A stretch of DNA of 64,000 bases, taken from sequence record PZ452583.1. The stretch is one strand, 5' to 3'. This DNA is from a phage. The translations under genes and the position numbers were made by a program. The notes beneath the pieces are model-generated. The model saw only the letters and a program-made list of their open reading frames with translations, had not been told where the DNA came from and searched no databases. Shown here piece after piece: positions 4,263 to 17,545 of the stretch; the first letter of the stretch is position 1; each line of letters starts with the position of its first letter.

Positions 4263-4292
4263 ATAGTACCACGGAAGAACAGTCTTGTAAAC
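4263..4292 (-). promoter_or_regulatory. early promoter plus conserved leader
   Basis: GTTTAC (+4287-4292), 18-nt spacer ending TGG, TACTAT (+4263-4268); leader CCCTATCAACTACGGAGGAACAGAAA then ATG. Confidence 0.55.
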
Positions 4293-4477
4293 AACTTTTT
4301 TAAAAATATTCGTAATAAATGTGAATACCAACTACTACCGCTGAAACCTGTGCAACCCACCACGCGCAAGCAATAAGTACAGAATTCAAAATTTTCATAA
4401 TAACCTCATCACAAAAGTAAATGTTAAACAAATTAATGGAATACTAATTAACCAAACAAAACACCACCATAATGAAC

Positions 4478-4741
4478 TCATAGTTCAATCTCAGCGATTT
4501 TCATTTCATTATTGTTAATAGCATTTTTAAGACTATCCGAAAGAATTACATTCCAGTGGTCATTCATATGACCATTAACTAAGCGTGTAATTTCTTCGGG
4601 AGTTGAAAAATAAGGCTGATCAGACTCCCAATGCGATAATCCTAAGCGAGTATAAATCATGCCTTCATCATCGCTAGAATATTCAACTGACACAAACTCA
4701 TCAGTTATTTTATGTTTAGCGTAATAAAATTTAAATTTCAT
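4478..4741 (-). CDS. hypothetical protein (87 aa)
   Basis: ATG 4739-4741 with SD GGAGAATAAA; track start is a TTG four codons upstream. Confidence 0.55.
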   Translation of the reverse strand: MKFKFYYAKHKITDEFVSVEYSSDDEGMIYTRLGLSHWESDQPYFSTPEEITRLVNGHMNDHWNVILSDSLKNAINNNEMKIAEIEL

Positions 4742-6624: not shown

Positions 6625-8802
6625 TTAGGCCGCAAGGGCCTTCATAGTTTTAGCGATTTGGGAAACTTCATCATCACTTAAAGAGTTGCGATAACCGATG
6701 AAGTCGGAAACAATACGGAATTTCTTGGTAAACTCAGCAACCATTTTATCACTATTTTTTGAAGCATTACGTGATAATTCATCAAAGAGATTAGTTACTG
6801 TCCAGATATCATGACCGATGGTATCTTTTCCACCATTGAAATACACACCGCGTAATGAACTAACCATATTACCAAGTCGTGTATATTCTTCAGAAACTTC
6901 ATCTGTACTGAAGTACTTCATCATAAAATCTAGTTCAGGATACTTGATAATTTTATCAATATATCGTTGAGCTGAACTTGAATAACCTACATACTTATCA
7001 TAATCTACATCATCAAAAGCATCTACATATAAATCACGCAAAGCTTCAAAAATACATTGGCACTGACCAAGCTCTTTTACCTTTTTCTGCAAAAGCGGAC
7101 GAATAACATAAAATTCATTAATGCCAATAAGATTAGCCATACGAATCAAAATATTCATAGATGGATGACAAAGTGATGTAGTACCATCCATAGAGAAAAT
7201 ATCAGAACGATGCATATACGCTACATAACCAGTAATTTCATCTGCTTCTGACGTAAGTGTAAATAATTCCTCTTTTTCCCAACGCCCATCTTTAATTTCA
7301 AACTTAAATGCTGTAGCAGCTTTAGGACGAGGAGCTTTACTTTTAACTACCTTTGGAATATAGCTTTTAACTAAAGCTTCAATTTCTGACAAATAATGAA
7401 TGTTAACTTCATCACTTTCAAACATTGCCATAATATCAGGTAGTAAATCAATCTGCGATTCTACTTCCGGATTAATAAACAGAAGACGCTCATTGTGATG
7501 AATATTTAAAGTGTTATTAAATTCACTATCATCTAGCGCATGTGCTAATCCACGGACAATATTAACACGATTTTTAATATTATCAATAACGATATTAATT
7601 TTTGTTGTATTAATACCAAACAGACGATAACTTGACGCAACGGCTGATGTTTCATGACTTTGCTTAATGCGCTTCAGTCGAGGGTCAAGATTTACTTCAT
7701 ACACAACTCCTGCATTGCATAACTTACTGTCAGGTTCAAACATGCTCTGCATCTTTTTATATGACAGATTTTTAGTCGTGAATTTGACTGAATTACTAAT
7801 CATATAATCTCGAGCAGAATACCCCATCTTCATCAATTCACGATATGTGTGACGGGGAGATGTAGATTCTTTAAATCGTTTTACATCTTCATTAAATGCT
7901 TTCTCACTAAGCTCTTTAACTCGTTCAATAATATTTTTACGAGTACGATCATCCAGTGAAAGAGCCTCGCGAGATGGAGCAATATCAAGTGAACCCATTG
8001 GAAACTTAATGTAATTCACTTCATTACGAATGCTTAGCCAGTTACGGTCTCTAATAACACCATCGATAGGATAAACAATACCACCATAGATAGCATATAA
8101 TCCACCACGATCAGGCCAGTATCTTTCTGGATTTACACCGTAATAGTCATCAAAATCCGGAAAATAATCAATTTCGCGGTCAAGACCATTAATAATAGCC
8201 AAATCTTTGAACGGTCGCATGATATAAGAAACTTCATAAGCAAAGTTTCTAAAGTCTTTTTCTTCAACTGGAACTACGATTTCAATACCAGTTTTATCAT
8301 CTGGACCCATTTCTTTTACGAATGTAGGTTTAATTTGTGGACCATCGCCATCCATGTAAGCTACATAACCACGAATTTCACCTTTATGATACGAAGTAAT
8401 ACTAAATGTATCAGTATAACTAAACGGAGATTTAGAACCTAAACCAAATCCGCCAATGAAATCGTTAGATTCAGCCTTAGATGAACTGAAATATGAATTA
8501 TACAGACCAGGAGAATTATCATCACCCTGAATATCAAAATCACTCATACCCGGACCAAAATCTCGGCAAACAAATCGTGGATCTAAACGTCCAGGAACTT
8601 GAATGATAAATTTTTCAGGATTTCCATTGAGTGCATGGGCATCAATCATGTTGGTAATCAATTCACGGACTACTGCGCGAATCTTGTTTGTATACAAATC
8701 AGATGACAGAATTTTAAATACTTTAGGATTTGCTGCGATGCTAAATGCTTTTGATTTAGAACCATTGCCAAGAATTGTTTCTTTTTCAGTGGTGATAATC
8801 AT
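6625..8802 (-). CDS. rIIA: rIIA protein
   Basis: 725 aa as T4 rIIA; SD GAGGAAAT before ATG. Confidence 0.9.
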
Positions 8803-9041: not shown

Positions 9042-9071
9042 ATTATACCACATCCTTGTGGTAAAGTAAAC
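9042..9071 (-). promoter_or_regulatory. early promoter upstream of rIIA.1/rIIA
   Basis: GTTTAC (+9066-9071), 18-nt spacer ending TGG, TATAAT (+9042-9047); -35 overlaps gene 39 stop. Confidence 0.6.
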
Positions 9072-10888
9072 TACTGGCTCATCCATTCTTTACGAAGGTC
9101 AGCATTATCTCCCATGAGCATTTCAAAAAGCTCTTTCCAGTTCTCAGGAAGTTTAACAACATCATATACTGGATTTTGAATCATCTCACGATATTCAGAT
9201 TTTTCCAAAGAGCCAAGTCCCTTAATATAACGGATGCTATGTTTAGATAGAGCATCTTTAGCACTCTCATATTCAGCGACTGTATAAAACCATTCTTGTT
9301 TTTTACCGACCTGGGCGATGATTACAGGAGTTTTGACAAAGCGAATTCGTCCTTGCTCAAACAATTCTGGCCAATTACTAAAAAATCCGAGCAGAGAAGG
9401 ATAAATGCTTCCTAAACCATCATGGTCAGCATCGGTCATAATAGCAATATTATGATAATTCAAGTTTTCAGCTTTTTCACCAAGAACTAATCCAGTGATT
9501 GCGCAAATATCAAATAGTTCTTTGTTTTTAAGCATATCAGCATATGACATACCCCAACTATTGAGAACTTTACCACGCAATGGATAACCACCATGAAGTT
9601 CTTTATCACGAACATCAATAAGATATCCGATAGCAGAATCACCCTCAGTCAAGAAAAGAGTAGTGTCAGCATCTTTACCACAAAGATTCGCTTTGATATG
9701 TTTATGAACCTTAGCTTTAGAAGCCTTTTTAGCTGCTTTAGTTTCTGCTGCTTTTTCTGCCGCCAATTTACGAGCCAACGCAGCTTCAATAATTGGCATT
9801 AAAATTGCTTCATTATTTAAAATAGCACGTGAAATCTTTTTAGCATCAAGTTGAATATGACTACGAATTTCGCCAAATGGAGAAGTCAAACGCTCTTTAG
9901 TTTGAGAATCAAATCGCATGTTTTTCATATCACGAACAAACATAACGATAGTCAAACATTCTTTAACGCGTGCTTTAGTTACATCAATTTTGAATTTACG
10001 TTTGATTTGTGGAATAAGGTCTTCACAAATATCATCCATAACACAATCAATGTGATGACCACCATTCTTAGTGTGAATGTTATTCACATAAGTTAATTGA
10101 CGAAAACCATCCGGTGAACGACCAACCGCAATAGAACAATTTTCTTGTTCTTGAACAATAGCGTGTTCATCATACTGTCGTGCATATTTCTTAAAATTGC
10201 CCTGAACCTTTTTACCATTAAAGGTAAATTGAATATCAGGATAAACAACAGCAAGTGTCTGGAGACGATCTAGTGTAATATCAAGATAAACCTGAGACAG
10301 CTCATTAGTTTCAAATGACATAAAATCAGGAATGAAAGTAACACGAGTTCCTTTCCATTTTCCAGGAATAGTTTCCCAGGATTTATTTTCCATACCATTT
10401 GAACAACGAACTACAATATTATTTTGACCATCGCCAGTTTCACCGACAAACATCACAGAAAAAATGTTAGTTAAACTAGAACCAACACCATTCATACCGC
10501 CGGTGACGCGTTCTTTATCATCACCGAAGTTACCACCTGCTTTTGGAATAGTCCACGCAGCAACAGGACCAGGAATTTCTTCACCAGTAGGTGTTTTAAC
10601 CATCGCCTGTGGAATACCACGACCGTTATCTTCAACTGTTACTTGATTGTTTTTAATAGTAACATTAATTTTATTTGCGAATTTAAACTTAGTACGAATA
10701 CCTTCATCTACTGAGTTATCGATAATTTCATCAATAAGCTTAACAAGACCAGGTACATACTGAACACTTTCCCATTTACCAAACAGAAAGCGCTCATGCA
10801 TTTCATTAGCAGAAGAGCCAATGTACATGCCACTACGCTTTTTGATATGTTCAATATCGCTCAGAATTTTAATTTCATTCTTAATCAT
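9071..10888 (-). CDS. 39: DNA topoisomerase II large (ATPase) subunit gp39, unsplit
   Basis: 605 aa from ATG 10886-10888 (SD GAGGATAAG); GyrB-like; no separate gene 60. Confidence 0.9.
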   Translation of the reverse strand: MIKNEIKILSDIEHIKKRSGMYIGSSANEMHERFLFGKWESVQYVPGLVKLIDEIIDNSVDEGIRTKFKFANKINVTIKNNQVTVEDNGRGIPQAMVKTPTGEEIPGPVAAWTIPKAGGNFGDDKERVTGGMNGVGSSLTNIFSVMFVGETGDGQNNIVVRCSNGMENKSWETIPGKWKGTRVTFIPDFMSFETNELSQVYLDITLDRLQTLAVVYPDIQFTFNGKKVQGNFKKYARQYDEHAIVQEQENCSIAVGRSPDGFRQLTYVNNIHTKNGGHHIDCVMDDICEDLIPQIKRKFKIDVTKARVKECLTIVMFVRDMKNMRFDSQTKERLTSPFGEIRSHIQLDAKKISRAILNNEAILMPIIEAALARKLAAEKAAETKAAKKASKAKVHKHIKANLCGKDADTTLFLTEGDSAIGYLIDVRDKELHGGYPLRGKVLNSWGMSYADMLKNKELFDICAITGLVLGEKAENLNYHNIAIMTDADHDGLGSIYPSLLGFFSNWPELFEQGRIRFVKTPVIIAQVGKKQEWFYTVAEYESAKDALSKHSIRYIKGLGSLEKSEYREMIQNPVYDVVKLPENWKELFEMLMGDNADLRKEWMSQ

Positions 10889-10940
10889 CACTTATCCTCG
10901 TTTGGTTTCGGGAATATTATACTCCGGTAATCATAAAGCT

Positions 10941-11223: not shown

Positions 11224-11601
11224 TCACTTAAATTTAATAGCTTGAAGAAGACTAATAATTCTCAAGCGACTTCTTTCATCTTTAACTGTAAAGGAAAGAG
11301 GGTCGCCAGATTTCATGGTAATAGTGCATTCAAAATCAAAATCTTCTGTGACTTCTTCGAAGAAGTCAAATTCTTCAGCATAAATTAGAACATTACTCTG
11401 CATACTGTGAAGAATTTTTCCGTTATTTCCAGACGCTGTACTAATCATCGTAACATTATGACCTTTCATATCTTCAACGATAAATTCGCTTGTAGATATT
11501 ACAGCATTAATAGAACCATTCCTATAAATAGCAGACATTAGATATTTCTTTTCTTCGCCTTCGCGAATACGATATTTCTTACCGATTTTAAACATAATCA
11601 C
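11224..11601 (-). CDS. hypothetical protein (125 aa)
   Basis: ATG 11599-11601 overlapping stop of upstream zinc-ribbon ORF. Confidence 0.5.
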   Translation of the reverse strand: MIMFKIGKKYRIREGEEKKYLMSAIYRNGSINAVISTSEFIVEDMKGHNVTMISTASGNNGKILHSMQSNVLIYAEEFDFFEEVTEDFDFECTITMKSGDPLSFTVKDERSRLRIISLLQAIKFK

Positions 11602-11776: not shown

Positions 11777-12202
11777 TTATTCCTTAAAATGAGCTTTCAG
11801 CATCTGATACAAGGACCATGCCTGTTCATTATTTTCAATAGTAACTTTCATGACTGGGAATTCTGTGAAATCTTCTATTTGTTCTTGCTCTTTCTCTTCC
11901 TGCTCTTGCTCTTCAACTGCCTGATATGGATTTTCCACTTCATCAAAGAACCCAGCTTCGTTAGTAGAAAGCCAAATAAAGTTTTCGTCAAGGATATCAC
12001 CATGTGTTGCATATCCAACTGTGCCAGTAGATGTCACAATTTTAGTAGGACGACCAAGATGGTCAACATCTAAAATTTTAAAAGGATGCATACCTAAACG
12101 GCGTGCATAGATTCCGTTATCAGTATGATCTTTAATAAAATTTTCTTGAGCTTGTTTATTTTTAAATTGATACCATTTATTAACTTCAAATCTAATAGCC
12201 AT
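11777..12202 (-). CDS. hypothetical protein (141 aa), acidic C-terminus
   Basis: ATG 12200-12202; ORF track. Confidence 0.5.
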
Positions 12203-12417
12203 TAATAAATTTCCTTCCAGTAAGTTGTGCCATCTTCAGTAATTTCACGAAATACACCGTAAATTGGTTGTTTATCACCAACCTTTTCATACACATAAAC
12301 CGAAGTCAAGTGAGTAAACTTAACGGTATGTTCCTTTTGAACCACTACCAAATCTGGATCAAATAATACATCTTCAAATTCGTCATTAGTGCAATTCTGA
12401 ACAATTTTGCGTTTCAT
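12202..12417 (-). CDS. hypothetical protein (71 aa)
   Basis: ATG 12415-12417; ORF track. Confidence 0.5.
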
Positions 12418-12430
12418 TACAATTTCCTCA

Positions 12431-12700
12431 TTAATTGAACAGTGGAGCGATACGTTTCAGAAGAGTAGCAGCACCTTTAGCGAATTTTACATCATGAAAA
12501 ACAGTTTCTTCTTCTGTAACAACACGAGCTTTAATGTTTTCACAATCCCAATTTTTGCGAACAATCTTCAAAAGCTGCAGTAAATCTTTACATTCAGCAA
12601 TATCGATAACACATCCACGAGAATCTTCCATTATCGCACGATAACCGTAAGCCATACCATAATCATTGAAAGATTGCTCGATGATAATTAAATTTTCCAT
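12431..12700 (-). CDS. hypothetical protein (89 aa)
   Basis: start MENLIIIEQ... after SD GGAGAA; ORF-track extension is translated leader. Confidence 0.5.
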   Translation of the reverse strand: MENLIIIEQSFNDYGMAYGYRAIMEDSRGCVIDIAECKDLLQLLKIVRKNWDCENIKARVVTEEETVFHDVKFAKGAATLLKRIAPLFN

Positions 12701-12750
12701 TTTATTCTCCAAGTTTTTCTGTATCAGTAGTTGATATTGATATAGTACCA
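12701..12750 (-). promoter_or_regulatory. variant copy of the conserved early leader cassette
   Basis: TGG-TACTAT and leader present but no GTTTAC -35 at the expected spacing; flanked by inverted repeat ATCAGTAGTTGAT/ATCAACTACTGAT. Confidence 0.35.
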
Positions 12751-12809
12751 TAATCAACTACTGATGTATATAGTTTTATGAAAAAAAAAAATTTAAACTT
12801 TATGCAAAT

Positions 12810-13229
12810 TTATGCTAAAGCTGCTTCGCACCATTTTTTAATTTGGAATTCAGGAACTACCATGAACTGGCCTGCAAAAACAATATTGTAGAGCTTGACA
12901 CCATCTTCTACCCAACGGTCCGAAATAAAACCAGCGACTTGATTCGTTGTCCATGGAGTTCCATCTGTTGCCGCCGCAATTGTGAATTTATGGTCTTTTA
13001 CAACTAAAACTGAAGAACAAAGTTTCCATTTAAATGCGCGTTCTTCTGGCTCAATGAACTGACTTGAGACATAACCAATGTTACCATCAGCGTCACGAAC
13101 TTTAACCTCGTTACGACCAAAAACTGGATCACTTACAGAAAGAACTTCAACCAGCTTTCCTGCAACTTTAGAACGAGAAGCAACGGATACATATACGTAA
13201 TCACCAGTAGAGAGATTTACAATATTCAT
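12810..13229 (-). CDS. hypothetical protein (139 aa), member of a tandem paralog trio
   Basis: shares C-terminal motif with the next two ORFs (G-x-x-S/T-D-x-W-V/I-E-D-G-x-x-L-x-N-I/V-V). Confidence 0.55.
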   Translation of the reverse strand: MNIVNLSTGDYVYVSVASRSKVAGKLVEVLSVSDPVFGRNEVKVRDADGNIGYVSSQFIEPEERAFKWKLCSSVLVVKDHKFTIAAATDGTPWTTNQVAGFISDRWVEDGVKLYNIVFAGQFMVVPEFQIKKWCEAALA

Positions 13230-13238
13230 AATAATTCC

Positions 13239-13712
13239 TTAAGCTTTACGAGGAGAAGCATAACGAGTGATTTCAGATTCTTCAACAACCCGGAAGTCAC
13301 CTAAGAATACGATATTGTAGAGCTTTTCACCATCTTCAACCCATTGGTCTGTGATGAAGCCACACATCCTATCAGTTTTACTTGGACCAGCGAAATCATC
13401 AATATAATCGAATTCTTCATCAGTTACAAATTCAACGCCTTTACACAACGCCCATTTAAATTGTGTATTAGACTCAGTGGATTCAACTTCTTCAACAGAA
13501 GCAAAATGAGAGCTAACACGAGTTTCCAGAAATTTAGGACTTACGTAAGCGTACTGAGTTTCAGTTTTTCCAGAACTAGGAATGATTCGAACTTTAACTT
13601 CTTTAACACGACCAGTACCATTAGTACGAAGTCCTACCACTTCAACTAGACGACCTGCAGCTTTAGAACGAGATGCAGACGATACACGCTTAATTTCACC
13701 GATAGTAATCAT
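13239..13712 (-). CDS. hypothetical protein (about 157 aa), tandem paralog
   Basis: start moved to MITIGEIKR... because a promoter -10 overlaps the ORF-track start; N-terminus aligns with 12810-13229. Confidence 0.5.
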   Translation of the reverse strand: MITIGEIKRVSSASRSKAAGRLVEVVGLRTNGTGRVKEVKVRIIPSSGKTETQYAYVSPKFLETRVSSHFASVEEVESTESNTQFKWALCKGVEFVTDEEFDYIDDFAGPSKTDRMCGFITDQWVEDGEKLYNIVFLGDFRVVEESEITRYASPRKA

Positions 13713-13755
13713 AATTTTTCTCTCTTTGTTGTTAAGATTTATACTCCGCAGGACC

Positions 13756-13785
13756 ATTATACTCTGGTCCCAAGAGTTTGTAAAC
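13756..13785 (-). promoter_or_regulatory. early promoter
   Basis: GTTTAC (+13780-13785), 18-nt spacer, TATAAT (+13756-13761). Confidence 0.5.
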
Positions 13786-14222
13786 TAGCTTACACGAACA
13801 TTAATCACTGCGCTACGAGGAACTACAGAGTATTCTCCAGCATGAACTACGTTCAGAAGTTCAACACCATCTTCAATCCACTGATCAGTCACCCATCCAC
13901 CCACAGGATTCGCGAATGGACGACGAATATAAACTGCCTTACACAGCAGATCAGTTGGATCTTCAGGTTTTTCAATTTCTGTCAATAGACTAAAATCTTT
14001 TTCATAAATAATAAGCGATGATACCATTCCATAATAGTTTCTAATTTCAATATACATCATACCGATAAGAATTCCGCTATTAACACTAATAACAGTAAAA
14101 GGATATCCGCCAGTTAAACCAAGAAGTTCACAAAACTTATTATGAGCTGTATTAGACAGTACCGAAAAATTCTTAATTTCATCAAATTTTTTCAATTGAT
14201 AAACAGCATTATTTTTAATCAT
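13785..14222 (-). CDS. hypothetical protein (145 aa), tandem paralog (C-terminal domain shared)
   Basis: C-terminal GGWVTDQWIEDGVELLNVVHAGEYSVVP matches the trio motif. Confidence 0.5.
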   Translation of the reverse strand: MIKNNAVYQLKKFDEIKNFSVLSNTAHNKFCELLGLTGGYPFTVISVNSGILIGMMYIEIRNYYGMVSSLIIYEKDFSLLTEIEKPEDPTDLLCKAVYIRRPFANPVGGWVTDQWIEDGVELLNVVHAGEYSVVPRSAVINVRVS

Positions 14223-14232
14223 GATTTTCTCT

Positions 14233-14745
14233 TTAATCTAAAGTAATAAAGCCTTTTAATTCGGCATGTGATTTGCGGAACATTACTTGGTGCCCGCCAA
14301 TGATAACTTGATCATCTGGCACTTCATAAATCGCAATGTACATTCCACGATCTTTTAAGTCTTCACGCTCTTCTCGAGTAAACCATCTCATTATATCATA
14401 TTCACTAGCGAAAGCAAAATGATATAATGCAATAAACCACAATGGAATATAATTTTCAATTCGTGAATAATCTTTATTCCATTTAGTTTTAATAGCATCA
14501 TTAGCATTTTCAACTAATAACTTATCATCGTGTGGAATAGGAATACTTTCATGGCTTTCATAATCATTGCTATGATGATGAAATGATGATGAATTAATAC
14601 CGCAAAATTTTAGCCAAGTTCGAGTTTTCATAGAATCAAATCCACGATAAGGAGTTGATTGAACGCATAACTCTTGCCTAATTTTCATTATACCACTATC
14701 ATCATTTAATGCGCTAAACGATGATTCAACACGATAAATTTTCAT
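14233..14745 (-). CDS. hypothetical protein (about 170 aa)
   Basis: ATG 14743-14745 with SD GAGGATAATAAA. Confidence 0.5.
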   Translation of the reverse strand: MKIYRVESSFSALNDDSGIMKIRQELCVQSTPYRGFDSMKTRTWLKFCGINSSSFHHHSNDYESHESIPIPHDDKLLVENANDAIKTKWNKDYSRIENYIPLWFIALYHFAFASEYDIMRWFTREEREDLKDRGMYIAIYEVPDDQVIIGGHQVMFRKSHAELKGFITLD

Positions 14746-14772
14746 TTTATTATCCTCAGTAGCTATGGTGTT

Positions 14773-14802
14773 ATAATACCACAACTGACCGAGGAAGTAA
14801 AC
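14773..14802 (-). promoter_or_regulatory. early promoter
   Basis: GTTTAC (+14797-14802), 18-nt spacer ending TGG, TATTAT (+14773-14778). Confidence 0.55.
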
Positions 14803-14808
14803 AACTTT

Positions 14809-15492
14809 TTATCGTTTTGTTGGAAGAGACAGAGGATCGCATTCTTCCTCTGATGGAGCGTCTTCAAGACCCATAGCATAGCGCAAAGCATACTTCATCA
14901 TCAGGATGTCTTTCGCACAGTCATGAATGGAATCATGCGCAACGAATCCATCTAAAGTTCCTTTTGGAAGAGGACACGTAGTCATATCACGAACAAGGAG
15001 AAGTGCTTCAATTCTAGTACGAATGTCGCGTTGATTCCAGAATTTACACGGTTCTAACTTAAATGTATCAAGCTCATTCTCGGAAACGCCGTTAAGACGT
15101 TGAATATCGCGAATGAGATCGACTAAAATTGGAAAATCAAACGACATTCCACGGCACCAGCCTTGAGATTTCCAAGGATCGATATTATGCGCATTGATGT
15201 AATCATTAAATTTTGCAATACCATCGATAGTGCTTACATCTTCATCTGATGGCGCAATATTTTTTCGAGCTTCAGGAGATTGATTCTTCCACCATTCGAT
15301 AGTGCTTTTAGTAAAAAGACGATGTCCTTTTTGGCTTTTTAAATCAAATTTGATTTTAATGCCACGTGAAACTAATTCATCAAATGTTTCAACGACTTCT
15401 GGATTAGGGTCAAAAGCAATTACAGCCAAATCAATAACAGCTGCTTTTTCACCGCTTCCCATTGTTTCAAAATCTATAATAAAATCAAACAT
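14809..15492 (-). CDS. dexA: DexA, exonuclease A
   Basis: 227 aa as T4 DexA; DEDD-type 3-5 exonuclease N-terminus (FIIDFETMG); SD GAGGAAAAT. Confidence 0.82.
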   Translation of the reverse strand: MFDFIIDFETMGSGEKAAVIDLAVIAFDPNPEVVETFDELVSRGIKIKFDLKSQKGHRLFTKSTIEWWKNQSPEARKNIAPSDEDVSTIDGIAKFNDYINAHNIDPWKSQGWCRGMSFDFPILVDLIRDIQRLNGVSENELDTFKLEPCKFWNQRDIRTRIEALLLVRDMTTCPLPKGTLDGFVAHDSIHDCAKDILMMKYALRYAMGLEDAPSEEECDPLSLPTKR

Positions 15493-15749
15493 TAAATTTT
15501 CCTCGCTAAATCACGAATTTGACCTACAGTATAGTCTTGAATATAAACTTTATTGATAGGCTCATCAATAAATTTTGCCATAGATTCAATGTCTTTTTGT
15601 ATTTCTTCAAGACTGTATACTATCTTTAAAGCTTTTTCGCGAATAGTAATATTTTCAGGACCCTGATTTTCTTCAATGACAGCTTTAACATTTGTCATAA
15701 GAGATTTAAACTGGTACCAACTCAACTCAATCATTAATAATCGCCTCAT
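15492..15749 (-). CDS. hypothetical small protein (85 aa), tandem paralog
   Basis: ATG 15747-15749; similar to next ORF. Confidence 0.5.
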   Translation of the reverse strand: MRRLLMIELSWYQFKSLMTNVKAVIEENQGPENITIREKALKIVYSLEEIQKDIESMAKFIDEPINKVYIQDYTVGQIRDLARKI

Positions 15750-15972
15750 AAAGATAGCTAATTTCGCCTAAAACGTAATCATTGATTGTAACAGTTTTCA
15801 CTTCACCACAAAAGAATTCTAACGCAATTAAATCTCGTTCAATTTCTTCTAATTGAAGCATCAACTTACTAGATTCAATTTTTACAGTTTCACGATTTTT
15901 ACCATGAGCAATTTCATAAATTTCGCTAACTTTATCCTGAAGAAGATAAAACTGATCTTTAGTTATTTCCAC
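15727..15972 (-). CDS. hypothetical small protein (about 81 aa), tandem paralog
   Basis: likely GTG start preceded by GAGGAAG; track start is TTG. Confidence 0.4.
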   Translation of the reverse strand: MEITKDQFYLLQDKVSEIYEIAHGKNRETVKIESSKLMLQLEEIERDLIALEFFCGEVKTVTINDYVLGEISYLYEAIIND

Positions 15973-16219
15973 GAATAGCTTCCTCAAATTTAATTAGTAA
16001 TTTACAGACACTTTCATCTAGTGTAATTACCGTATCTGTATTACTGTGATATGATTGTTTTTCAATTCGTTTAATTGCTAATATAGTATCACTTATAAGA
16101 TAAAGCTTATGAAGGAGCTCAGCTCCTGTTATCATAACATTAAGATTATCTTGCTTATTAGTATGCTTCCTTATACCATCTATTAGACGATTTAAATATT
16201 TTGAATTGATGTTAATCAT
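15959..16219 (-). CDS. hypothetical small protein (86 aa)
   Basis: ATG 16217-16219; ORF track. Confidence 0.5.
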   Translation of the reverse strand: MININSKYLNRLIDGIRKHTNKQDNLNVMITGAELLHKLYLISDTILAIKRIEKQSYHSNTDTVITLDESVCKLLIKFEEAIRGNN

Positions 16220-16225
16220 ATATCC

Positions 16226-17545
16226 TCACACATAAAATACGTCATAACGACCACGGGTAACACCAACATAAAGAAGTTGTTGAGCTAGTTCAGCATCTGC
16301 ATAATGAATACAAGGCGTATAAATGAAAGCACGGTCTACAGACATACCCTGAGCTTTATGGAATGTTGATGCAGGAAGTGCTTTCACTTTACTAAACTGT
16401 GATTTAGCATCCCAAAAATCACTCCACGGAGCTTTTCCGCCTTTGTTCCAATTTTTATAAGTTTCTGCCGTTTTACCTAAAAATAGGTTAAACTTATATA
16501 GCTCTTCATCAGATGAAATTATTTTAATCTTTTCACGATAATATTCATCATCGCCGTAAGTTTCTACTGTTAAATCCCAATGACGAATTAAGTATTCTCC
16601 AGGAACACCACGAGCTTTAACAAACGTCGATGTATACTCTGCTTCTATAATACGAACTAATTGTCCATTATTAAAAATAATTTCTGACACAGGCTTTCCG
16701 TCAATTTTATATGTTTTAATTAATGGTTCCTGCATTACAATAATTTCACCGACAATAAAATCTTTATCAGTTTCAAAAATCTTTTTACGAATAATGCTAT
16801 TTAACTTGTCAACAGATTTATTCGTAAATGCCATTACGCGATTTTCAAACAAATCATCTAAAGATTTGACGATTGAAAAATAATTTACCATAAAATCGCG
16901 TAAAGCGGTATCACCAGTAAATCCACGTACTCCATGCCCGTCAACAACTTTATCATAAATCCACTTACCGTTACGAACGTCAGTAGCTACATCAATAATA
17001 GGAGCATTACTGCGTTTAACTTCAGTGAGTTCACACTGATAAAAATCTTTATGTGTAAAGAATGGACTGATATAAGCAGTGTTTTCTCCTGGGTCAACAG
17101 GTCTAATTTGCTTATTATCACCTATTCCAATTATAGTACACCATGGCGGGATAGTTGAAAGCAGAATTTTAAATAGCTTTCTATCATACATTGACACTTC
17201 ATCGCAGATTAATACTCTGCATTTAGCTAAATCTGGTACTTCCTTCTGCTCAAAGAGGACATTTTCTTCATATGTTACCGGGTTAATTTTGAGAATACTG
17301 TGAATAGTACTCGCTTCTTTCCCTGATAGTTTTGAAAGAATCTTTTTAGCTGCATGTGTAGGAGCTGCCAAAATGATACCAGTTTCGCCCGTAGATATTA
17401 AAGCTTCAATGATGAACTTAGTAAGAGTAGTCTTACCAGTACCAGCAGGTCCATTAATAGTTACATGATGTTTCTTTTCTTTAATAGCCCTCATAACAAT
17501 GTTAAAGGCATTTTTCTGGCCTTCAGTCAAATCATCAAATGTCAT
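16226..17545 (-). CDS. dda: Dda DNA helicase
   Basis: 439 aa as T4 Dda; Walker A GPAGTGKTT; SF1 helicase motifs. Confidence 0.92.
   Translation of the reverse strand: MTFDDLTEGQKNAFNIVMRAIKEKKHHVTINGPAGTGKTTLTKFIIEALISTGETGIILAAPTHAAKKILSKLSGKEASTIHSILKINPVTYEENVLFEQKEVPDLAKCRVLICDEVSMYDRKLFKILLSTIPPWCTIIGIGDNKQIRPVDPGENTAYISPFFTHKDFYQCELTEVKRSNAPIIDVATDVRNGKWIYDKVVDGHGVRGFTGDTALRDFMVNYFSIVKSLDDLFENRVMAFTNKSVDKLNSIIRKKIFETDKDFIVGEIIVMQEPLIKTYKIDGKPVSEIIFNNGQLVRIIEAEYTSTFVKARGVPGEYLIRHWDLTVETYGDDEYYREKIKIISSDEELYKFNLFLGKTAETYKNWNKGGKAPWSDFWDAKSQFSKVKALPASTFHKAQGMSVDRAFIYTPCIHYADAELAQQLLYVGVTRGRYDVFYV

Follow-up and report, generated by a model that had tools for sequence, protein, structure and literature searches.

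The window analysed here, a stretch of 64,000 nucleotides of phage DNA (PZ452583.1), is assigned to a Tequatrovirus, with 98.8% identity to phage vB_EcoM-S1P5QW and ~97% to RB3. Three adjacent open reading frames (ORFs) lie on its minus strand, at 12810-13229, 13239-13712 and 13785-14222, and encode proteins of 139, 157 and 145 amino acids (aa), respectively. On sequence grounds the second is the ortholog of motB (PF17613, E = 3.3e-41; PHROG 1671, E = 2.4e-68; annotated as motB in RB3 and other phages), the third is a full-length motB.1 (PHROG 2333, E = 6.7e-68; PF17613, E = 8.4e-8, residues 104-139 only) and the first is an extra MotB-like copy that has no T4 counterpart (PF17613, E = 7.6e-20; PHROG 1671, E = 1.2e-50). 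The next gene, motB.2 (14233..14736, minus strand; 167 aa from the ATG at 14736), is assigned by PHROG 1106 and by the annotation of RB3 and T4, and it is not a member of the MotB family, as it had no PF17613 match in the Pfam search. The gene order cef, motB, motB.1, motB.2, dexA is that of T4, as seen in synteny with the T4 and RB3 annotations, and the block therefore sits where T4 has its motB-region genes, as was originally predicted. This is the location typical of MotB proper, which Tevenvirinae genomes encode between dexA and cef, within their early non-essential region. The goF gene (11777-12202) lies four genes downstream. An Rfam search of 12000-15000 gave zero structured-RNA matches at E ≤ 1, and the PADLOC (defence/anti-defence) and NCBIfam models gave zero matches.

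The three ORFs are genuine relatives and belong to the MotB / MotB-like / MotB.1 family. In BLASTP comparisons the 139-aa protein matches the 157-aa protein over its full length (E = 8e-29, 39% identity) and the 145-aa protein over 31 aa (E = 2e-11, 55% identity), while the 157-aa and 145-aa proteins match each other with E = 8e-12. All three exceed the gathering score of the motB model PF17613 (25 bits), with 71.8 bits for the 139-aa protein, 141.3 bits for the 157-aa protein, which aligns to profile positions 2-158 of 162, and 32.7 bits for the 145-aa protein, where the C-terminal domain only is matched. Similarly, PHROG 1671 is matched end to end by the 157-aa and 139-aa proteins, and by the 145-aa protein in its C-terminal part alone (profile positions 81-159; protein residues 76-141). 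At the DNA level the block contains a 39-nt repeat in three copies (72-74% identity), a 93-nt repeat (71%) and a 48-nt N-terminal repeat (79%). The original prediction of three tandem paralogs with a common C-terminal domain was to be abandoned if a formal alignment found no significant similarity, and in that alignment it holds. There is next to no chance that the likeness is a coincidence or a compositional effect among non-homologous ORFs, given these E-values, the one Pfam model that all three ORFs match and a core that has been kept in over 50 non-identical C-terminal domains of homologs. The first two ORFs also share the predicted N-terminal segment, SRSKVAGKLVEV / SRSKAAGRLVEV (residues 18-29 and 14-25), which is not present in the third protein.

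The start of the middle gene had been placed at 13712, and this is correct because homology to T4 MotB begins there, with a good ribosome-binding site, and because the ATG at 13757, to which the mechanical ORF extends, overlaps the -10 hexamer of a promoter. This predicted early sigma-70-type promoter (13756..13784, minus strand; GTTTACA-N17-TATAAT, 11/12) is directly upstream of motB, is identical in sequence in T4, RB3 and the window, and probably also drives the 139-aa gene, which starts 10 nt beyond the motB stop codon. A second, early-type promoter is predicted upstream of motB.2 (14773..14801, minus strand; GTTTACT-N17-TATTAT with an upstream TG, 9/12) and would serve motB.2 and motB.1, which are separated by 11 nt and are probably co-transcribed. 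Hence, of the two genes in three that were thought to have their own early promoter, motB does have one, but the 139-aa gene and motB.1 do not. Own promoters for these two were considered and rejected, as the gaps are of 10 and 11 nt and there are just weak 9/12 matches inside the upstream coding sequences. The number of promoter-like sites in the region (17) is not above that expected from shuffled sequence (13.7 ± 3.7).

The shared C-terminal domain comprises residues 66-139 of the 139-aa protein (12813..13034, minus strand; from alignments and the AF2 model), residues 85-157 of MotB (13242..13460, minus strand; from alignments) and residues 88-145 of MotB.1 (13788..13961, minus strand; from alignments and AF2 secondary structure), the last of which is without the hairpin insertion of ~15 residues that is found in MotB-type copies. 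The core G-x-[IV]-[ST]-D-x-W-[IV]-E-[DE]-G-x-x-L-x-N-x-V is present in all three proteins. The longer motif of the original prediction is found as written in the 139-aa protein, where it spans G100 to P126 (12852-12932, minus strand), and in the 145-aa protein, but the final proline is a glutamate in the 157-aa protein (VVEES). In an alignment of 21 diverse C-terminal domains D, W, E, G, L, N, V and G are invariant, and across the family the domain is a constant module of ~55-75 aa with the core G-[WFY]-[IV]-[ST]-D-x-W-[IV]-E-D-G-x-x-L-x-N-[IV]-V. A K-to-E swap distinguishes MotB-type from MotB.1-type cores.

AF2 models of the 139-aa protein and the 145-aa MotB.1 (pLDDT 83.2 in both cases) predict with good confidence that the shared domain is a five-stranded SH3/Tudor/KOW-like barrel, in which, for the 139-aa protein, strands 4 and 5 are separated by a 3-10 turn. 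The OB fold is also a five-stranded barrel, whose strands 3 and 4 are typically linked by a helix. The modelled C-terminal barrel may not correspond to the OB-fold that was published as an HHpred prediction for the C-terminal domain of MotB. Its closest folds are the Tudor, chromo and KOW barrels; the structure comparisons also took in BFVD (Foldseek). If the SH3/Tudor/KOW-like reading holds, MotB as a whole would be a tandem small-barrel protein and the OB-fold assignment would have to be revised. When a profile of the domain was searched against all PDB chains nothing was below E = 0.6, and against 1.84 billion representative proteins there were 34 matches, among which the small proteins all have the MotB-like two-domain architecture. 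Five long, multi-stretch matches (E = 1.7e-7 to 5.3e-4) were rejected as spurious, as they are Ig-like, InlB B-repeat, phage tail or CarboxypepD_reg repeat proteins in which a hairpin of ~25 residues alone is aligned. The C-terminal domain is thus confined to T4-type phages.

Each protein of the family is composed of two small β-barrels joined by a linker, and it is the N-terminal barrel that is variable, such that the constant C-terminal domain is combined with three or more kinds of N-terminal architecture. That of MotB is basic and KOW-like and contains an SRSKAAG motif, and that of the short copy is KOW-like, not basic, and followed by a very short linker. The combination that defines MotB proper (a KOW-like N-terminal domain, an SRSKxAG motif and the family C-terminal domain) is found in the 157-aa and 139-aa proteins and not in the 145-aa protein. 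The latter instead has what distinguishes the MotB.1 subfamily, a distinct N-terminal domain on a MotB-type C-terminal domain and a gene immediately upstream of motB. Its N-terminal domain is modelled by AF2 as a helix and a strand barrel, and this different barrel, published as LSm-like, is unrelated in sequence to that of MotB (hhalign probability 0.1%). For the window proteins the term KOW-like denotes mere resemblance, as none of them matches the KOW model PF00467 at E ≤ 0.1; a distant relative (P0239) is alone in passing it (24.8 bits versus 22.3). The idea that a barrel was duplicated within the protein, or that the N-terminal domains share an ancestor, was set aside for want of sequence support, with hhalign probabilities below 2% for the N-terminal versus the C-terminal domain of MotB, for the N-terminal domains of MotB versus MotB.1 and of MotB.1 versus GoF, and for the C-terminal domain versus GoF.

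The gene at 12810-13229 is a second, shorter copy of motB. It is absent from T4 and T2 and is found in RB3 (RB3_010) and in the Mosigvirus phages SF and moha, and the databases already contain an identical (100%) protein named MotB-like. One might suppose that this duplicate is redundant, is decaying and lacks a function of its own, as it is missing from T4 and T2, is complete together with ORF89 in just 52 of 637 matching phage records, and lacks the basic loop and linker of MotB. However, the reading frame is uninterrupted and preceded by a good ribosome-binding site, ~25 clusters with 83-100% identity have kept the length of 139 aa, AF2 models the protein with confidence, and dN/dS is 0.10-0.16 at a dS of ~0.6 relative to the orthologs of another genus, Mosigvirus. 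Among the orthologs there are no frequent frameshifts or stops and dN/dS is not near 1, and we consider decay to be very improbable. Purifying selection acts on all three genes (dN/dS 0.10-0.38, with 0.17-0.38 for motB). We suggest that the cluster arose by tandem duplication together with swapping of N-terminal domains and that recombination between the copies keeps reshuffling the set. Support for such recombination comes from the chimeric proteins P0028, P0031 and P0241 and from T4 motB, whose 3' end can be aligned with that of the 139-aa gene.

We propose that three MotB-family (PF17613) genes, namely motB, motB.1 and a second, shorter copy of motB, form a cluster in the early region of a T4-like phage that is not essential, and we hold this with high confidence in view of what the analysis shows on paralogy, on membership of the family, on architecture, on selection and on the promoter consensus. 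The genes would be transcribed right after infection from host-type early promoters, motB with the short copy and motB.2 with motB.1. What the products might do is largely drawn by analogy from T4, where MotB binds DNA tightly and non-specifically, is toxic in E. coli, has a positive, 2-fold effect on burst size and co-purifies with H-NS/StpA (PMC6070864), and where it alters the H-NS footprint and H-NS-repressed genes are up-regulated (PMC7827196). Compaction of the nucleoid by T4 MotB is also mentioned in the summaries given by later papers. By extension, the MotB ortholog is expected to bind host and phage DNA independently of sequence, compact the nucleoid, and remodel H-NS/StpA-DNA complexes so as to relieve H-NS silencing and increase burst size. 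The common C-terminal barrel would serve one purpose in all three proteins, either attachment to the nucleoprotein complex or self-association, and the N-terminal heads of MotB, the short copy and MotB.1 would set the preference for a nucleic acid or a partner.

The charge of these proteins bears on how far the T4 results apply. T4 MotB is basic (pI 9.2, net +6) but the window MotB is acidic (pI 5.4, net -3), with a charge of +8 in its N-terminal 60 aa and -7 in its C-terminal domain, and the short copy has a pI of 5.8 and a net charge of -1 across its first 60 aa. Since the window MotB is acidic overall and the short copy is without a basic N-terminal domain, a non-specific coating of DNA such as that by T4 MotB is not guaranteed for the window alleles, and T4 biochemistry should not be transferred blindly between alleles that vary so greatly in charge. 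The residues that are best conserved in the core of the C-terminal domain are acidic or hydrophobic (D, W, E, D/E, G, L, N and V), and judging from these the conserved surface does not look like one that binds the DNA backbone. It is possible, although we would not presume it, that the C-terminal barrel is a protein-protein module, used for homo- or hetero-oligomerization or for one host partner, and that in a mixed complex contact with DNA or RNA is left to the N-terminal heads. The charge split of the window MotB points in this direction, as does the absence of a conserved basic residue common to all three proteins, the joining of one constant domain to several heads, the closeness of the fold to Tudor, chromo and KOW barrels, for which peptides or proteins are common ligands, and the partly dimeric behavior of MotB.1 on a gel (PMC12152347). 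On the other hand, a DNA-independent interaction between MotB and H-NS was not detected (PMC7827196), homomultimers of T4 MotB.1, albeit in a truncated form, were not predicted with confidence by AlphaFold3 (PMC12152347), and the C-terminal domain of T4 MotB is mildly basic (net +2). Such a module does not exclude the main explanation, that of a MotB-family cluster acting early in infection.

A functionally non-uniform cluster is an unlikely alternative, one in which RNA would be the target of MotB.1, and possibly also of the short copy, as post-transcriptional regulators of an LSm-like group with GoF and Frd.2. The fold of the N-terminal domain of MotB.1 has been described as LSm-like, with GoF and Frd.2 as relatives (PMC12152347), it has no profile-profile similarity to that of MotB, and goF itself is nearby, yet MotB.1 was without effect in a published RNA reporter assay (PMC12152347), hhalign detects no signal between the N-terminal domains of MotB.1 and GoF (probability 0.7%), and the N-terminal domain of the short copy is of the MotB type and not LSm-like. 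A point that counts against the main explanation is that T4 motB.1 mutants had no phenotype under laboratory conditions (PMC12152347). The reference T4 motB.1 is shortened to 119 aa by one extra G, placed at approximately position 7364 of NC_000866 by alignment with the window, and resequenced T4 encodes an intact protein of 143 aa. This truncation affects which protein is to be chosen for expression in functional studies, and the full-length MotB.1 may never have been used in heterologous expression. As a more speculative idea, to which we give rather little credence, the C-terminal barrel might be a dedicated SH3/Tudor-like association module and not an OB-fold DNA binder, with MotB, the short copy and full-length MotB.1 assembling on one nucleoprotein complex and bringing three N-terminal heads to the host nucleoid. 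If so, the published heterologous assays of T4 MotB.1 would be uninformative, because the 13.8-kDa reference form, through a one-base error or a stock-specific mutation, is without most of the C-terminal module.

The finding of a shared domain is correct but ordinary. As described by Patterson-West et al. (2021; PMC7827196), MotB and MotB.1 have a conserved C-terminal domain in common and some phages contain multiple copies, and family members are already annotated in public genomes as MotB-like transcriptional regulators. The exact proteins are likewise present in public phage genomes, and so the cluster carries little weight as a discovery. What we add are the barrel model, the confinement to T4-type phages, the purifying selection and a predicted strong early promoter that belongs to motB only. 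To T4 specialists the barrel fold, the charge differences between alleles and the shortened T4 MotB.1 reference should be of modest use.

The best studied relative of the window MotB is T4 MotB (NP_049626, 162 aa; PF17613, "Modifier of transcription"). The two are in one family, whose model the window protein matches end to end, motB lies in both genomes between motB.1 on its upstream side and cef on its downstream side, and they have a common plan, with the SRSKAAG motif in the N-terminal domain and the core GxITDQWVEDGxKLYN in the C-terminal domain. However, they are only ~44% identical (dN 0.50), and the window protein is far nearer to the Mosigvirus MotB proteins (dN 0.09-0.11). The window MotB.1 is 79-84% identical to T4-type MotB.1 (NP_049627; PHROG 2333; Category 2 of PMC7827196), with the same N-terminal domain and a gene that lies between motB.2 and motB in both, and it differs from the T4 reference entry in having the whole C-terminal domain. 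The short copy is 99-100% identical and equal in length to the RB3/RB68-type copies, which are also directly downstream of motB, and 85-91% identical, at the same length and immediately downstream of motB, to the Mosigvirus copies (SF gp183, moha_175), where the next gene is a motB.2 homolog and not ORF89 as in the window; otherwise nothing material differs. Beyond the family, the tandem Tudor domains of 53BP1, KOW6-7 of Spt5, the KOW domain of NusG and KIN17 are 7-21% identical in structural alignments and have no sequence relationship to these proteins, and the likeness to tandem Tudor/KOW/SH3-like proteins is one of structural analogy and not of family membership. Finally, T7 gp5.5, T4 Arn and LUZ24 gp4 are unrelated to MotB in sequence or fold and bind H-NS directly, whereas MotB acts through DNA binding, but all are proposed to have the same outcome, the early relief of H-NS silencing.

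Three successive minus-strand ORFs of 139, 157, and 145 aa (12810-13229, 13239-13712, and 13785-14222) occupy 12810-14222, in what is unmistakably a T4-type early region. Also called as minus-strand ORFs are topoisomerase gene 39 (9071-10891), a zinc-ribbon 39.2-like ORF, goF (11777-12202), and the 89-aa ORF89 (12431-12700) on one side and motB.2 (14233-14736), dexA (14809-15492), and dda (16226-17545) on the other, and cef (12202-12417, minus strand) is recognized by Pfam T4_Cef (E = 5.5e-35). By Megablast, a 2.4-kb stretch is 98.8% identical to Escherichia phage vB_EcoM-S1P5QW and ~97% identical to RB3, RB5, and RB27, and nearly all of the 701 records matched are T4-group phages. The annotated T4 and RB3 records identify 13239-13712 as motB and 13785-14222 as motB.1; 12810-13229 is an extra MotB-like gene (RB3_010 in RB3), missing from T4 and T2, and an identical 139-aa sequence is already public as a MotB-like protein.

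Each of the three proteins scores above the gathering cutoff of Pfam PF17613 ('motB, modifier of transcription'). The match is end to end for the 157-aa protein (141 bits), falls into two stretches for the 139-aa protein (72 bits), and is confined to the final 36 residues of the 145-aa protein (33 bits). In PHROGs, phrog_1671 (MotB-like transcriptional regulator) takes in the 139- and 157-aa proteins and phrog_2333 the 145-aa protein. The original prediction of three tandem paralogs with a common C-terminal part is confirmed as an observation and supported as an interpretation. By BLASTP, the 139- and 157-aa proteins are 39% identical over their full length (E = 8e-29), the 139- and 145-aa proteins share a C-terminal block (55% over 31 residues, E = 2e-11), and the 157- and 145-aa proteins match with E = 8e-12, while the predicted motif was found with a single exception, its final Pro being Glu in the 157-aa protein. 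The paralogy is still seen in the DNA, as a 39-nt repeat in three copies (72-74%), a 93-nt repeat (71%), and a 48-nt repeat (79%) encoding the N-terminal SRSK segment. The feature is already known, as an alignment of 102 phage homologs by Patterson-West et al. (2021) showed that MotB and MotB.1 have a common conserved C-terminal domain and different N-terminal domains, that one gene was probably derived from the other by duplication, and that multiple copies occur in several phages, with two motB genes plus motB.1 in RB69 (PMC7827196). The prediction, correct as it is, therefore rediscovers a published family.

Two of the three genes had been thought to have an early promoter of their own, which holds for motB and not for the 139-aa gene or motB.1. 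Only motB has a strong one (GTTTACA-N17-TATAAT, 13784-13756), and its sequence is identical in T4 and RB3. The predicted start of motB at 13712 also stands, since T4 MotB homology begins there and the ATG at 13757 overlaps the -10 hexamer. A second good promoter (14801-14773) lies ahead of motB.2, and spacings of only 10 nt separate the motB stop from the 139-aa gene and 11 nt motB.2 from motB.1. Judged from promoter consensus, the genes appear to form two short operons that are read from host-type early promoters.

The T4 reference sequence (AF158101.6 / NC_000866.4) differs inside motB.1, reading ...CAATGGATTGGAAGATGG... where the window, RB3, and the resequenced T4 'wild' (KJ477684) read ...CAATGGATTGAAGATGG.... 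One extra G (GGATTGGAAGATGG vs GGATTGAAGATGG) cuts the reference motB.1 short at 119 aa by a frameshift midway through the conserved core (GGWVTDQWI|GRWR*), and the rest of the C-terminal domain is perfectly readable in the next frame. The site is in 4292-4651 of locus L002, a stretch of T4 NC_000866, plus the 150 nt below, matching 13785-13900 of the window. KJ477684, without the extra G, encodes an intact 143-aa MotB.1. Thirteen further records, comprising eleven other T4 records (including T4T), RB55, and RB59, match 99.7-99.8% of the 601-nt reference stretch and 12 of them span 600 nt, consistent with the same one-base difference, which was read directly in KJ477684 only. Contigs with the 143-aa form number 256, those with the 119-aa form two. 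The extra G is unmentioned in PMC7827196 and PMC12152347. Kim et al. (2025) described a MotB.1 of 13.8 kDa and found no phenotype for T4 motB.1 mutants (PMC12152347). At 13.8 kDa this protein has the size expected of the 119-aa form, so the heterologous assays of that study may have been run with a MotB.1 without most of the family domain; this does not touch its phage deletion results.

Purifying selection acts on each of the three genes, dN/dS being 0.10-0.16 for the 139-aa gene (compared with Mosigvirus orthologs, dS ~0.6), 0.17-0.38 for motB, and 0.28-0.35 for motB.1. The cluster is a mosaic, with module exchange evident at 12809-13961 in comparison with the loci of Mosigvirus phage moha (L004) and T4 (L002). 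Colinearity with moha (82.5% nt) extends over the 139-aa gene and most of motB, dN to the Mosigvirus alleles being 0.06-0.11. Against T4 motB, blastn gave no match in the body of the window gene (dN 0.50). The flanks are T4-like at 86-94%, and the flanking genes resemble those of T4 or T2 at 86-97%. At its 3' end, T4 motB aligns with the corresponding end of the 139-aa gene and not with that of the window motB. Chimeras are also found among database proteins, two of which (P0028 and P0031) join T4-type or RB3-type MotB heads to a 139-type C-terminal domain and another of which (P0241, 43 aa) links the motB.2 N-terminus to the motB.1 tail. It follows that unequal recombination among the tandem copies alters copy number, with the conserved core as the apparent site of exchange and breakage. 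A further database MotB (P0248) has a frameshift exactly at GYIT|DQW.

Presence is patchy, as ORF89 and the 139-aa gene occur together in 52 of the 637 matching records and many have just one of them. ORF89 (PHROG 3720, hypothetical; the mechanical ORF extends to 12757) lies between cef and the 139-aa gene and is also in T2 and RB3, whereas the T4 cef-motB intergenic region is an out-of-frame deletion remnant retaining its leader, start codon, and last ~60 nt (~28 nt coding plus the spacer to cef). The leader, just downstream of the 139-aa gene, contains a perfect 13-bp stem-loop (12723-12765, transcribed strand minus) that is 100% conserved in the window, T4, and T2 and folds with z = -4.76 against shuffles. 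It has no T-run after it and no Rfam match, and an RNA processing/stability element and a weak terminator are candidate roles. Just upstream is a poly-T run that varies from 5 to 11 T.

Topoisomerase gene 39 of the window is one uninterrupted 606-aa ORF, whereas gene 39 in the annotated T4 stretch is shorter (1551 nt, ~516 aa) and adjoins mobA and gene 60.1, the T4 record noting that the large Topo II subunit is split in two by an insertion. The T4 gene 60 segment is read by translational bypassing. Between 39.1 and 39.2, where T4 has no gene, a minus-strand ORF of 125 aa (11224-11601) matches Pfam FRD2 weakly and under threshold (E = 0.014) and may be a further member of the GoF/Frd.2/MotB.1 LSm-like group (PMC12152347). 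Downstream of dda are dexA.1- and dexA.2-like genes (15492-15749 and 15727-15987, minus strand; 85 and 86 aa) that are mutual paralogs (31% identity, E = 2e-10); a third ORF of 86 aa (15959-16219), present in RB3 and absent from T4, has no BLASTP similarity to either.

A profile of the C-terminal domain alone matched only 34 of 1.84 billion representative proteins (E <= 1e-3). The credible matches are small proteins (100-250 aa), most with a KOW-like head followed by a MotB-type or MotB.1-type C-terminal domain, and one of these passes Pfam KOW. Long multi-stretch matches were rejected as spurious, being Ig-like or other beta-repeat proteins. Foldseek against viral models found relatives in Klebsiella phage Potts1, Yersinia phage phiR1-RT, Escherichia phage EcS1, Serratia phage PS2, Citrobacter phage Merlin, and Enterobacter phage CC31. 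The module thus ranges across the T4-type phages of enterobacteria and no further.

T4 MotB reportedly compacts the nucleoid and derepresses H-NS silencing, at least as later papers summarize Son et al. (2021). It binds unmodified and glucosyl-hmC DNA tightly and independently of sequence, is toxic in E. coli, has a positive, two-fold effect on burst size, dominantly alters the H-NS footprint at proV, and up-regulates 75 host genes, about one-third of them H-NS-repressed (PMC6070864, PMC7827196). Our analysis shows the cluster to be a tandem family of predicted two-barrel proteins in which one domain is constant and the other variable. From the T4 experiments, the MotB member would be highly abundant from the first minute of infection and bind DNA non-specifically, compacting the nucleoid and overriding the H-NS binding pattern, by which H-NS-silenced genes would be derepressed and yield improved. 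The constant C-terminal barrel would provide an activity common to all members, and the N-terminal heads would diversify its target. The main rival, compatible with this explanation, makes the barrel an association module. The invariant positions of the barrel are taken by acidic or hydrophobic residues, the MotB and MotB.1 types differ by a Lys/Glu swap, and in the window MotB the barrel has a net charge of -7 compared with +8 in the first 60 residues; hence this tentative role has a substantial, if minority, probability. We are cautious about labelling the barrel as the DNA-binding part. Because the 139-aa copy is near neutral and without the basic loop and linker of MotB, we speculate that it may modulate MotB rather than duplicate it. 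The window MotB (13239-13712) is acidic (pI 5.4, net -3) and T4 MotB (L002 3654-4142) is basic (pI 9.2, net +6), mainly through the linker and C-terminal domain, and DNA-binding behavior could differ between the alleles.

AlphaFold2 with family alignments predicts two beta-barrels in tandem for both the 139-aa protein and MotB.1 (mean pLDDT 83.2 each). In both models the C-terminal domain is built of five strands, with the first hairpin long and strands 4 and 5 joined through a 3-10 turn, which in these predictions is the signature of an SH3-like small barrel; no helix lies between strands 3 and 4. By hhalign, no sequence relationship was detectable between N- and C-terminal domains or between the N-terminal domains of MotB and MotB.1 (probability <2% in each case), and no solved structure related by sequence to the C-terminal domain was found. 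Kim et al. (2025, PMC12152347) grouped the MotB.1 N-terminal domain with GoF and Frd.2 under an LSm-like fold. As a structural analogy only, the predicted two-barrel architecture resembles the KOW pairs of Spt5, the KOW domain of NusG, and the SH3-like tandem of KIN17.
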